A stretch of 64,000 bases of DNA from an uncultured Hyphomicrobiales bacterium (GCA_964344345.1 CAYFNC010000011.1:18325-82324); one strand, 5' to 3'; shown: positions 4,993 to 62,401, counted from the first letter of the stretch. Notes: generated by a model from the letters alone, not told the origin. A program made the numbers and translations.

Positions 4993-6234
4993 TCAGTGAA
5001 CCTGGGCGGACTCTTCGGCCATTATATGGGTATTCGCGTCCGCCGTCGCCGTCACCGGAAGGGAAAAGGAGAAGACGCTGCCCTCGCCCAAGGCCGACTC
5101 GCACCGGATATGCCCGTCCATGCGCCTGAGCAGGGATTGAACGTAGGCGAGCCCCATGCCCTCGCCCTCGGTGTCCTGCTTGCCGACGCGCTTGAAAACC
5201 TCGAACACGTGGGGAATGTCCGCCTCTGCGATGCCGCGCCCGGTGTCGCGGATGCGGAAGACCTGGTATTCCCGCTCCCGCTCCGCCATGACGGAGATTT
5301 CCCGGGAGCCGTCCGCGGACATGAACTTGACCGCGTTGCCGAGCAGGTTGCCGACGACCTGCTCCATGGCGGTCCTGTCCGCCATGACCGGGGGCAAGGG
5401 GCCGACGTCGACGGTGATTCCCTTTTCCTCGATCTGGAAGGCGAGCGCGTCCAGGGTTTCCTTGACCAGCGCGTTCATGTCGATGGTCTCGGGACGCATT
5501 TCCCGCTGGCCGGCCTTGGAGTAGTCCAGAATCGTATCCACCAGATGCATCATCCGCGCGGAGGAGCTGGCGATGTAGCCGAGCGATTCGGCGAGTTCGT
5601 CGTCCAGGCATTTCCCGATCGCGGCGCGCTGCCTGTCGGAAAGGGTCTGTTTGATCTCGTCCAACTGCTTGCGCGCTTCGTCCAGGTTGGATTTCGCGAT
5701 CTCGCCGAATCCGATGATGCTGACCAGCGGCGAGCGAAGGTCGTGCGACACGATGCTGGCGTAGCGCGGCACGTCCCGGTTCATCTGGCCCAACTCCTGG
5801 ATCAGGCGGTGCAGGTCCTCCTCGACCTCCTTGCGGACGGCGATTTCGGTGTTGAGCTTATGGATCTGCTCCTCCTGGCGGCGGCGCTCCTCGAGGATCG
5901 CCGGGATCAACCTGCGGAACAGAAGCCCGATCACCAGAACCGCGACGATGACGTTCAGGATTTTCGGAATGAAGACGATGTGGGGCTGGACCAGGAAGTC
6001 GAAAATCTCCTTGGGCAGCATCCCGACCCTGGCGGTGTACCAGGTCCCGAAGAAGGCGCTTTCGAACAGGCTGCGGAAGGCGTCGATGGCGAGCACCAGA
6101 AGCAGGACGGCGAAGGCCTTGCCGATGTCCCCGCTCGATTTGCGGTGCTTGTAATAGAACGCAAGGATCAACGCCCACAGGACGATCAGTATCCAGTAGG
6201 TCACGGGCGTCAGGATAGAGAAAATTTCGGCCAT
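4993..6234 (-). CDS. membrane-bound sensor histidine kinase
   Basis: Multi-TM N-terminus, a coiled linker, H-box SIVSHDLRSPL, N-box GNLLGNAVKF and G-boxes (DTGRGI, GEGMGL). Confidence 0.85.
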   Translation of the reverse strand: MAEIFSILTPVTYWILIVLWALILAFYYKHRKSSGDIGKAFAVLLLVLAIDAFRSLFESAFFGTWYTARVGMLPKEIFDFLVQPHIVFIPKILNVIVAVLVIGLLFRRLIPAILEERRRQEEQIHKLNTEIAVRKEVEEDLHRLIQELGQMNRDVPRYASIVSHDLRSPLVSIIGFGEIAKSNLDEARKQLDEIKQTLSDRQRAAIGKCLDDELAESLGYIASSSARMMHLVDTILDYSKAGQREMRPETIDMNALVKETLDALAFQIEEKGITVDVGPLPPVMADRTAMEQVVGNLLGNAVKFMSADGSREISVMAEREREYQVFRIRDTGRGIAEADIPHVFEVFKRVGKQDTEGEGMGLAYVQSLLRRMDGHIRCESALGEGSVFSFSLPVTATADANTHIMAEESAQVH

Positions 6235-33737: not shown

Positions 33738-33813
33738 GTCCCCTTCGTCTAGAGGCCTAGGACACCGCCCTCTCACGGCGGCAACAGGGGTTCGAATCCC
33801 CTAGGGGACGCCA
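33738..33813 (+). tRNA. tRNA-Glu (anticodon CUC), CCA encoded
   Basis: GTCCCCTTCGTCTAGAGGCCTAGGACACCGCCCTCTCACGGCGGCAACAGGGGTTCGAATCCCCTAGGGGACGCCA is near-identical to E. coli tRNA-Glu except for the anticodon loop CUCUCAC. Confidence 0.92.
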
Positions 33814-60703: not shown

Positions 60704-62089
60704 ATGAACAAGCGGCTCAAGGAAATCAAGACCCGGACCAAGGCGGCGAGCAAGGGACCGTGGGTCCTGGACGGCAAGCAACGGTTCCCGACCGTGACCG
60801 ACCGTCTGGGCGCGGTCAGCATCGCCGAATGCCGCGACGCGGGCGGCGTCCTGAACCTGCGCAACGCCCAGTTCATCGCGAGCGCTCCCGCCGACATGGA
60901 ATGGCTCCTGGCCGAGCTGGAGGCCGCGCGCGGCAAGGGCGGCAAGGCCGCCTCCGCCTCCGCGCAGAACAAGATGGAGGAGCTTCGCGAAAGCCTGAAG
61001 GCCTCGGAAAAGGAAATCAAGGCCCTGAAGTCGGCCCTGGATAAAAGCGAGGGGGCGAGCCAGTCCGCGCTGCAGGAGCGGCAAACCCACCTGGAGCAAT
61101 CCTGGGAGGAAATCGAAAGCCTGAAGACCGCGCTGGAGGGCAAGGAGGCCGAGCGCCTCGCCGTCATCGAGCGCCAGGACCGGGAGCTCAAGGCGGCGCG
61201 TGACGACGCGGCCAAGCGCAAGGCCGCGTTCGAGGAGCGCGAAAGGGCCCTGCAGCACGAGGTGAAGGAAGCCGAGGGCCGGGTCCGCAGCGCCAACAAC
61301 GAAACCGCCATCGTCAACGCCGCGCTCGAGGAGCGCAAGAAACAGCTCGACGAGTCCTGGTACGAGACCGAGCGCCTGCGCAACGAAATCAAGGAAAAGG
61401 AATCCGAGCGCGCCGCCCTTGGGACCGAACTCCAGGCCAAGCTCAAATCGCTCGGCGACGAGTTCGCGAAGCTCAAGGCCGAGGCGGACGGCGCGGCGGC
61501 CGCGCTCAAGACCGCCGAGAAAAAGGCGGCGAAGCTCGAGGCCGACGCCGCCGAAAAACACAAGGCGTCGAAAGCCGGAGCCGAGGACGCCGAGAAGAAA
61601 CTGAAGGCCGCCGAGGAAAAAGCCAAGAAGCTCGAGGCCGACGCGAACGAGGGCAAGGCCCTAAAAGCCAAGGTCGAGGAGACCGAGAAAAAGCTGAAAG
61701 CCGCCGAGGAAAAAGCCAAGAAGCTCGAAGCCGAGACGGGAGAGAGCAAGGCCCTAAAAGCCAAGGTCGAGGAGACCGAGAAGAAACTGAAGGCCGCAGA
61801 GGAAAAGGCCAAGAAGCTCGAAGCCGACGCGGGCGCGGCCGAGGACAAGGCTCTCAAGGCCAAGGTCGAGGACGCGGAGAAAAAGCTGAAGGCCGCGGAA
61901 GAAAAGGCCAAAAAACTCGAAGCCGACGCCGCCGACAAGGACAAGGTCCACCAGACCGCTCTCGCCGACGTCCAGGCGAAACTGAAACGGGCGGAGGACG
62001 ACCTGAAGGCGCAGCAGGCGGCCGCCAAGGCGGAGCCGGAAAAACCCTCCATGGCCTCGAAGGCCAACAAGCTGTTCAAGAAGGGCTAG
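60704..62089 (+). CDS. long coiled-coil protein with a globular N-terminal domain and four tandem 31-33-aa repeats
   Basis: N-terminal 70 aa: KGPWVLDG...ECRDAGGVLNLRNAQFIASAPADMEWLLAELE. The rest is heptad-like and Glu/Lys/Ala-rich. (ALKAKVEETE)KKLKAAEEKAKKLEAD occurs four times. Confidence 0.7.
   Translation: MNKRLKEIKTRTKAASKGPWVLDGKQRFPTVTDRLGAVSIAECRDAGGVLNLRNAQFIASAPADMEWLLAELEAARGKGGKAASASAQNKMEELRESLKASEKEIKALKSALDKSEGASQSALQERQTHLEQSWEEIESLKTALEGKEAERLAVIERQDRELKAARDDAAKRKAAFEERERALQHEVKEAEGRVRSANNETAIVNAALEERKKQLDESWYETERLRNEIKEKESERAALGTELQAKLKSLGDEFAKLKAEADGAAAALKTAEKKAAKLEADAAEKHKASKAGAEDAEKKLKAAEEKAKKLEADANEGKALKAKVEETEKKLKAAEEKAKKLEAETGESKALKAKVEETEKKLKAAEEKAKKLEADAGAAEDKALKAKVEDAEKKLKAAEEKAKKLEADAADKDKVHQTALADVQAKLKRAEDDLKAQQAAAKAEPEKPSMASKANKLFKKG
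61570..61935 (+). repeat. in-frame tandem DNA repeats (units of about 93-99 bp, four copies) within the coiled-coil gene
   Basis: GAGAA(G/A)AA(A/G)CTGAA(G/A)GCCGC.GA(G/A)GAAAA(A/G)GCCAA(G/A)AA(G/A)CTCGA(G/A)GCCGA recurs near 61592, 61685, 61778 and 61877. Confidence 0.8.
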
Positions 62090-62116: not shown

Positions 62117-62401
62117 TGGTGCCGGATGAGGGACTCGAACCCCCGACCTTCTGATTCATCCCAACTACGGCTTTCGCCGCCCGTACGGTTTGTGGGCTGG
62201 ACTTTCCCTTCGCCATGGGCCGTGGCCCGTAGGCGCCGCCCGTCAAGTCTCTACACCTTCCCCGGCTGGGGCTTGGCTCGGGATCGGCATCGGCCAGGGC
62301 CGGAAGCGTTCCCCGAATTTGAGCGGATCATTCCAAGGGGTTTCCCCCAAGGACGGCAATCATTCACAAATCAGCGGCTCTACCATCTGAGCTAATCCGG
62401 C
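62117..62401 (-). tRNA. tRNA-Thr (anticodon UGU) gene interrupted by a group I intron between nt 36 and 37; CCA encoded
   Basis: The 5' exon (62401-62366) is GCCGGAUUAGCUCAGAUGGUAGAGCCGCUGAUUUGU. The 3' exon (62156-62117) is AAUCAGAAGGUCGGGGGUUCGAGUCCCUCAUCCGGCACCA. Joined, they give a canonical 76-nt cloverleaf closely resembling E. coli tRNA-Thr(UGU). Confidence 0.85.
62157..62365 (-). ncRNA. group I intron (Azoarcus/Agrobacterium tRNA-intron type, IC3-like), 209 nt, no ORF
   Basis: The preceding exon ends in U and the intron ends in G. Core blocks CAAAUUCGG, GAGCCAAGC and GAAGGUGUAGAGACUUGACGG match the remembered Azoarcus tRNA-Ile intron. Pairings seen by eye: P3 CCGCUC/GGGCGG, P4 UUCGGG/CCCGAG, P6 CCCC/GGGG, P7 GACUU/AAGUC, GAAA tetraloops on P2 and P9, and P10 UGAUU/AAUCA. 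Confidence 0.8.

Follow-up and report, generated by a model that had tools for sequence, protein, structure and literature searches.

Can a tRNA gene whose halves lie 209 nt apart, and whose interrupting sequence forms only two contiguous pairs with its 5′ exon, still yield a functional tRNA? This question is raised by positions 62117-62401, minus strand, of a 64,000-nt stretch of DNA from an uncultured Hyphomicrobiales bacterium (GCA_964344345.1, CAYFNC010000011.1:18325-82324), hereafter the window. The 5′ exon (62366..62401, minus strand; 36 nt, tRNA nt 1-36, GCCGGATTAGCTCAGATGGTAGAGCCGCTGATTTGT) ends in U34 G35 U36, and the 3′ exon (62117..62156, minus strand; 40 nt, tRNA nt 37-76, AATCAGAAGGTCGGGGGTTCGAGTCCCTCATCCGGCACCA) includes an encoded CCA (62117-62119, minus strand). 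Between them lies a 209-nt intron (62157..62365, minus strand) that begins GAATGATTGCC, ends GGGATG and contains no ORF. The first-pass annotation had placed the split on the minus strand between tRNA positions 36 and 37, with a 5′ exon ending in U and an insert ending in G; the coordinates and the split are correct, and the two boundary residues are indeed U−1 and omega-G. We consider it highly probable that a 209-nt IC3 group I intron, spliced out by means of a weakened guide, splits a tRNA-Thr(UGU) gene between U36 and A37 at this locus.

The two exons joined in silico form a 76-nt molecule that ARAGORN, run on the spliced sequence, calls tRNA-Thr(tgt). The acceptor stem has 7 bp and the D stem 4 bp, the anticodon loop reads TTTGTAA and the T loop TTCGAGT, and the CCA is encoded. 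Its UGU anticodon is located in a 7-nt loop with U33 and A37, and its acceptor stem carries the pairs G1-C72 and C2-G71, which are threonine identity elements known from work in E. coli. Judged by these features, the spliced product is tRNA-Thr(UGU), its aminoacylation being a prediction. The cloverleaf had been described as textbook, which holds for its length, stems, loops and CCA but not for the 27:43 pair at the top of the anticodon stem, a G.A mismatch here compared with C-G or G.U in the other Thr(UGU) genes found. The window tRNA exons are identical at 58-68 of the 76 positions to those of 10 other split Thr(UGU) genes, with identical boundaries.

To which class does the insert belong? 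A targeted search of 421 nt gave an end-to-end match to the Rfam model RF00028 at 62180-62382 (minus strand), with a score of 39.2 bits and E=1.2e-8. Proposed earlier as a check, the model thus gave a match at this E-value in the targeted search; on the negative side, the score falls below its gathering score of 50, and the intron was not reported in either whole-window Rfam run (gathering mode; E<=0.01). According to the preprint of Williams (bioRxiv 10.1101/2020.01.27.920355), the RF00028 seed contains no bacterial sequence, and scores of 18-20 bits were used in that study, so the cut-off is a detection setting rather than a definition of group I introns. The miss that the gathering score and the speed filters cause for a small bacterial IC3 intron in whole-window scans amounts to a systematic blind spot in annotation.

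A covariance model of the core (R1; P3 to the P7 3′ strand) was built from 28 related introns with the window left out, and it matched the window over its full length (model positions 1-135) at 136.1 bits (E=2.5e-34) with zero non-canonical pairs, with no further match anywhere else in the 64 kb. A chance match of the intron core is excluded by this leave-one-out model. In blastn comparisons with more than 100 tRNA introns, the window precursor gave 70-80% identity with a best E of about 1e-39. In addition, every one of the 74 columns without variation across the other 28 introns is kept by the window; at near-invariant columns it deviates once, with C170, a change that G206 compensates where the family has an A-U pair. 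As a group I intron, the insert falls into the small IC3 family of bacterial tRNA introns, in agreement with the original reading of an ORF-less intron of the Azoarcus/IC3 type, which is upheld by the leave-one-out score together with the covarying P1-P9; the sequence blocks then recognized as Azoarcus-like also occur in the Azoarcus-type seed from the alignment by Williams. The intron looks intact and, as far as its sequence can tell, is probably competent for splicing.

The P1-P9a structure was drawn on the window sequence under the guidance of the Williams seed-alignment consensus, and its pairs were counted on a MAFFT alignment of 29 sequences. Across the 29 introns, 87.9% of cells in the P1-P9 structure were paired, compared with 31-46% when the 3′ partners were slid, and changes on both sides were found in 39 of the 66 pairs; the observed values were reached by 0 of 500 shuffles. 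Compensatory changes were clear in P3, P6, the last P7 pair, P8 and P9.

The catalytic core extends from the P3 5′ strand to the P7 3′ strand (62197..62329, intron nt 37-169; this and all intron elements below are on the minus strand). The P3 5′ strand CCGCUC (62321..62326) pairs with the P3 3′ strand GGGCGG (62236..62241), with 99.4% of cells paired in the alignment and compensatory changes in four of the six pairs. P4 (nt 50-55 with 83-88) encloses P5 (nt 59-79) within 62278..62316; P4 is invariant and 100% paired, and the outer P5 pair covaries, being C-G in 17 and G-C in 12 sequences. P6 (GCC/GGU) and the P6a hairpin (62255..62277) are 100% and 97% paired, respectively, and the pair C91-G109 in this region is C-G in 21 and G-C in 8 sequences. 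The guanosine-binding helix P7 is formed by a 5′ strand with a bulged A, G(A)GACUU (62245..62251), in a pseudoknot with the 3′ strand AAGUCC (62199..62204), and by the alignment count it is 100% paired, its last pair being U-A in 11, A-U in 10 and G-C in 8 sequences. The possibility, raised at the outset, that covariance might show P3, P4, P6 and P7 not to be homologous to group I cores is answered by this alignment, in which the core helices are 97-100% paired across the 29 introns.

Outside these helices, the P2 hairpin (62332..62353), whose pairs covary, carries a GAAA tetraloop (62341-62344, intron nt 22-25) and a tandem U.U internal mismatch. The P8 hairpin (62211..62235) is 100% paired in its outer and 84% in its inner pairs and contains a CCUACG...CAUGG motif, which by analogy with Azoarcus would act as a tetraloop receptor. 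P9 and P9a (62160..62196) include a second GAAA tetraloop (62172-62175, intron nt 191-194) and the C170-G206 pair that replaces the A-U pair of the family. The last intron nucleotide is omega-G (G209, 62157..62157), and the relatives all end in G. With its 209 nt, the intron lacks both P5abc and an ORF, and the GAAA loops on P2 and P9 would dock into P8 and P5, respectively, if the Azoarcus architecture applies. The minimum free energy fold recovers P2 with its GAAA loop, P3, P4, P5, P6a, P8 and P9a, and the centroid structure also keeps the P2 GAAA loop; the folding energy was not below that of shuffled sequences (z = +0.8), a measure that is uninformative for a GC-rich pseudoknotted RNA. The P3, P4, P6 and P7 helices and the GAAA loops on P2 and P9 that had been visible by eye are supported.

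Is the host tRNA a new one for such introns? It had been suggested that tRNA-Thr(UGU) might be a new insertion context, a suggestion that does not survive, given that tRNA-Thr hosts are present in the 2020 Williams seed alignment and that 10 distinct metagenomic Thr(UGU) genes are split at 36/37. The Williams preprint (bioRxiv 10.1101/2020.01.27.920355) reports the mapping of 5292 tRNA group I introns, which extended the four classical settings to 21. Its seeds (10.1101/2020.01.27.920355) include Rba53.Thr.5Ug, with the exon ggU, the guide Gcc and a loop position identical to that of the window, Mti5.Thr.3Ug, whose loop CUU/G corresponds to Thr(UGU) split after U34, and Pgr210.Thr.2Ug as a third tRNA-Thr setting. 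A metagenome scan for the Thr(UGU) anticodon arm joined to two intron core blocks returned 11 contigs with 10 distinct sequences (L121-L131), each a tRNA-Thr(UGU) split exactly at 36/37 with a spliced tRNA of 76 nt, an intron of 209-225 nt and, in all of them, the guide GCA; the same pattern had zero matches in viral contigs. Our literature search found no published splicing evidence for any Thr-hosted intron. The known Thr(UGU) 36/37 class gains a GC-rich alphaproteobacterial member with this locus, and the host context is not new. In five of the metagenomic introns, a G-rich 5′ stretch (intron nt 3-7 in L124, L125, L127 and L130; from nt 4 in L126) can pair with the 5′ exon over 5-8 nt, which may reflect chance or a P1-extension register as an alternative to the canonical guide.

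A wider genome scan with an 18-nt intron core (GGTGTAGAGACTNGACGG) as the query found at least 120 loci, and nearly all resolvable sites among the matches listed are tRNA genes split in the anticodon loop. The hosts are Leu(UAA) split at 34/35 (at least 66 loci), Arg(CCU) at 36/37 (at least 10), CAU tRNAs at 33/34 (at least 8) and at 36/37 (at least 6), Arg(UCU) at 36/37 (at least 2), Thr(GGU) at 36/37 (at least 2), and Lys and Leu(CAA) with at least 1 locus each. Among these matches, the core is found in split tRNAs far outside cyanobacteria, in Acidobacteriota, Eremiobacterota, Nitrospirota, Chloroflexota and Bacteroidota, and further in Saccharibacteria (L064), Actinomycetota (L102, Tsukamurella, Lys-UUU) and Vibrio (L067, Arg-UCU). 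This distribution among the matches listed suggests that the classical list of four hosts greatly understates how widespread tRNA group I introns are beyond cyanobacteria.

Some core-motif sites gave no split-tRNA call (L007, L008, L018, L020, L031, L032, L034, L035, L037, L041, L043, L056, L066, L083, L098, L099, L103, L106, L112 and the minus-strand copy in L013). Several of them are located at the ends of their loci and some adjoin an intact tRNA; they could be introns in other hosts, such as tmRNA or other genes, or reflect incomplete data. The proteobacterial contig L013 contains the core motif twice, at 5654-5671 (plus strand) and 6129-6146 (minus strand), about 475 nt apart, of which only one copy was resolved, as a split tRNA-Leu(UAA).

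What sets the present copy apart is its guide. P1 (62356..62367) is a 4-bp hairpin with the loop AUGA, formed by A2-U7, G1.U8, the splice-site wobble U36.G9 (U−1.G9) and G35-C10 (G−2-C10), followed by a mismatch of U−3 with C11, beyond which U−4.G12 could pair. P1 had been described as only 2 bp long; the two contiguous exon-guide pairs stand as the most unusual feature of this copy, but the P1 hairpin totals 4 bp. All 29 aligned introns have the U.G wobble at the splice site, and the pairs next to it in P1 change in step with the anticodon of the host. The internal guide triplet (62355..62357, intron nt 9-11) is GCC in the window versus GCA in 10 of the 10 other Thr(UGU) introns, so the exon U34, opposite C11, is left unpaired; GCC is the triplet of Thr(GGU) introns. 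At least three contiguous exon-guide pairs are formed in 106 of 108 family introns, and only the window and one other intron form two. In the alignment, the window is the sole real case of an unpaired −3 position among the 29 introns; L015 appeared as a second exception and was rejected because its exon had been misaligned by MAFFT and contains no real mismatch. The tandem U.U mismatch of P2 occurs where the similar P2 of L129 has A-U pairs.

At the other splice site, P10 is formed by the guide strand UGAUU (62358..62362, intron nt 4-8) and AAUCA of the 3′ exon (62152-62156) through five contiguous pairs, as the first-pass annotation had proposed. Across the family, conservation extends over the first three pairs of P10, and only 4 of 108 family introns have a P10 of 5 bp, which makes that of the window longer than in nearly all its relatives. 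On this pairing pattern, the weakened guide (GCC opposite UGU) probably lowers the efficiency of splicing without abolishing it. According to the title of an Anabaena study, splicing requires that the exons pair in the anticodon stem, and by extension from Anabaena such pairing could help to hold the exons here despite the short P1. The locus offers a natural test of how few exon-guide pairs an IC3 ribozyme can work with while its exons are also held by the anticodon stem and a long P10.

How did the mismatched guide arise? The triplet GCC is a perfect complement of GGU and serves as the guide in L015, L025 and Rba53, all of them Thr(GGU) introns, which raises the alternative that the intron recently moved in from another tRNA gene, possibly Thr(GGU), by reverse splicing or recombination, an origin that would be compatible with function. 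To compare intron bodies, distances were calculated with the first 12 nt left out because they are constrained by the host. Among the matches listed, the nearest bodies were alphaproteobacterial Leu(UAA) and Arg(CCU) introns (p-distance 0.22-0.25; Paracoccus, Acetobacteraceae, Phenylobacterium, Rhodovulum and Xanthobacter) and not those of other Thr(UGU) genes (minimum 0.27, mean 0.33), in keeping with a relocation. On the other hand, both Thr(GGU) introns compared were not close (0.33-0.35), and the distances give no support to a derivation from a Thr(GGU) intron, which we regard as unlikely. Azoarcus-type introns were the most distant class (0.42-0.44). The differences in distance also lie within sampling error, and neighbour joining gave no placement of the window intron with at least 50% bootstrap support; moreover, the sample of relatives is biased by the core motif used as the query, so the comparison covers the matches listed. 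Identity to the Williams seed sequences was uniform, at 77-84% of aligned positions. The 5-bp P10 strand fits a UGU-type 3′ exon, the P1-P2 region resembles that of the Thr(UGU) intron L129, and a single A-to-C change in a GCA guide is simpler than a move. We therefore regard a recent relocation as unlikely, and equally doubtful is its corollary that the locus captures an intron in the act of switching tRNA genes, with a P10 that fits the new exon and a guide GCC that still reads the old anticodon. If true, such a snapshot would reveal the route by which the family reached about 21 host settings and the extent of guide mismatch that it tolerates in cis. An A-to-C change of the guide in an intron of the Thr(UGU) lineage appears to be the simplest explanation of the data.

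The mismatched guide leaves the question of whether the gene is still functional. Three blemishes meet at this one locus, namely the mismatch of the GCC guide with UGU, the U.U mismatch in P2 and G27.A43 in the tRNA, and the exon-guide pairing is at the low extreme of the family, among the lowest 2 of 108, as might be expected of a decaying or poorly splicing relic in which mismatches make the gene non-functional and another gene supplies tRNA-Thr(UGU). Against such decay, the invariant core columns are intact without exception and the lone near-invariant deviation is compensated, the core helices are all fully paired, U−1, omega-G, the cloverleaf and the CCA are preserved, P10 is longer than usual, and default ARAGORN finds no second Thr(UGU) gene within the 64-kb window. 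We consider a relic improbable, and given the intact core we read the locus as a functional, though possibly inefficient, gene.

The architecture and family membership of the split gene are read directly from its sequence, and the catalytic steps proposed here are modelled on those of the family, which is known to self-splice from the Azoarcus pre-tRNA-Ile (PMC13168695) and, as far as the Anabaena source goes, from work on Anabaena. The gene would be transcribed as a 285-nt precursor, in which the intron would fold into a P3-P9 ribozyme core while its 5′ end forms P1 and presents the U36.G9 wobble. An external guanosine bound in P7 would then attack after U36. The 3′ exon would be aligned by P10, in which UGAUU of the intron pairs with AAUCA, and by the anticodon stem formed between the two exons, upon which omega-G209 would enter the guanosine site and the exons would be ligated into a 76-nt tRNA with its encoded CCA.

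Such genes escape standard annotation. Default ARAGORN misses the split gene, as had been anticipated for standard callers, and for the whole window it reports only one tRNA-Glu. The intron-aware mode (-i), likewise suggested earlier, does report an intron-split tRNA at the locus, but with the wrong identity, tRNA-His(gtg) with a 207-nt intron, i(39,207), and the tRNAscan-SE 2.0 paper describes that program as not designed for detecting such genes. When the possible 7-nt anticodon loops were enumerated, U−1, omega-G and a plausible anticodon occurred together only at the 36/37 junction; Pro and Ile (anticodon GAU) registers, favoured by the criterion of a 5-bp anticodon stem, were rejected on tRNA geometry and on homology to the 10 Thr(UGU) loci. 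U−1 and omega-G are present in 98.5% of tRNA group I introns according to the preprint of Williams (2020, bioRxiv 10.1101/2020.01.27.920355). A different register or identity is hardly credible, be it the tRNA-His(GUG) reported by ARAGORN -i with a 207-nt intron at 38/39, which we rejected because its 5′ exon and its intron both end in A and it thus has neither U−1 nor omega-G, or a GAU tRNA spliced after U33, which is bounded by U and G and has a 5-bp anticodon stem and the loop TTGATGA but would make a non-canonical tRNA of 78 nt in which two nucleotides separate the D stem from the anticodon stem, given that the 10 homologous loci splice unambiguously to Thr(UGU) at 36/37 and that P1 and P10 are compatible with this register only. 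The practical side of the locus is thus annotation, as genomes of this kind would appear to lack tRNA-Thr(UGU) because gene finders and Rfam at standard thresholds miss the split gene.

The 285-nt precursor recurs unchanged in the ENA metagenome contig ERZ930068 (PRJEB17505), whose identity to the window is 99.97% over 3.5 kb; that record has no gene call across the tRNA. Neither antisense ORF, the one of 89 aa that had been described as spurious or another of 66 aa, matches a Pfam family. The upstream same-strand gene encodes an FMN-binding protein of the glutamate-synthase family, whose best homologues beyond the source record reach only about 70% identity, and the synteny search through this gene accordingly returned no close relative genome. 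No sigma-70-like promoter was found in the 50-nt upstream gap. Downstream, a weak terminator-like hairpin with a U-run (62046..62063, minus strand) is located about 55 nt from the tRNA and may be unrelated to it; a terminator consensus scan gave 2 sites against 1.0 expected. Convergent with the tRNA, a 461-aa ORF (60704-62089, plus strand) is rich in Lys, Glu and Ala with repeated KKLKAAEEKAKKLEA-like units, matches no Pfam family above the cut-off apart from a sub-threshold coiled-coil match, and is internally repetitive at the DNA level (80% self-hits). Farther away are a tRNA-Glu(CUC) (33738-33813, plus strand), the sole tRNA reported in the window by default ARAGORN and Rfam, and a SAM_alpha riboswitch (RF00521; 45041-45119, minus strand; 61.8 bits, E=1.8e-11), which suggests an alphaproteobacterial origin of the window.

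Several named systems share features with the window intron. The Thr.5Ug setting, represented by the seed Rba53, agrees with it in isotype, in the loop position after nt 36, in U−1 and omega-G, in the guide GCC and in the P3 sequence CCGCUC/GGGCGG, with 83.5% identity over aligned positions. By contrast, its anticodon is GGU rather than UGU, so the shared GCC guide is mismatched only in the window, and Rba53 is 258 nt long, with a long P8 insertion and another P7 variant. The metagenomic Thr(UGU) genes L121-L131 share the tRNA, the insertion point, the architecture and intron lengths of 209-225 nt with the window, and L129 in addition has the same UGAUUGC P10/guide strand and a near-identical P2. 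These genes differ in the guide GCA, in the 27:43 pair (C-G or G.U), in an intron identity to the window of only 69-74%, and in the P3 helix, which in 9 of 10 is the Azoarcus-like GGUGUC/GGCACC.

Among the matches listed, alphaproteobacterial Arg(CCU) introns at 36/37 and Leu(UAA) introns at 34/35 are GC-rich and resemble the window precursor at 74-80% identity in blastn (E about 1e-39), with examples in Xanthobacter (L053), Paracoccus (L087 and L089), Phenylobacterium (L002) and Rhodovulum (L003), and several carry the P3 of the window. They reside in other host tRNAs, however, with the Leu insertion after U34, and their guide and P10 strands match their own exons. The Azoarcus pre-tRNA-Ile(CAU) intron (IC3), which serves as the family's structural model and self-splices by a mechanism that has been solved structurally (PMC13168695), is likewise inserted at 36/37, is without an ORF and has a similar length (205 versus 209 nt). 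It also shares the P1 hairpin formed from three exon nucleotides and intron nucleotides, a GAAA loop on each of P2 and P9, and the sequence blocks CAAAUUCGG, GAGCCAAGC and GAAGGUGUAGAGACU.GACGG; in a global alignment, the Azoarcus-type seed and the window intron are identical at 141 of 209 positions. The two introns differ in their host tRNA, their guide (GUG versus GCC), the sequence of P3 and the P9 region.
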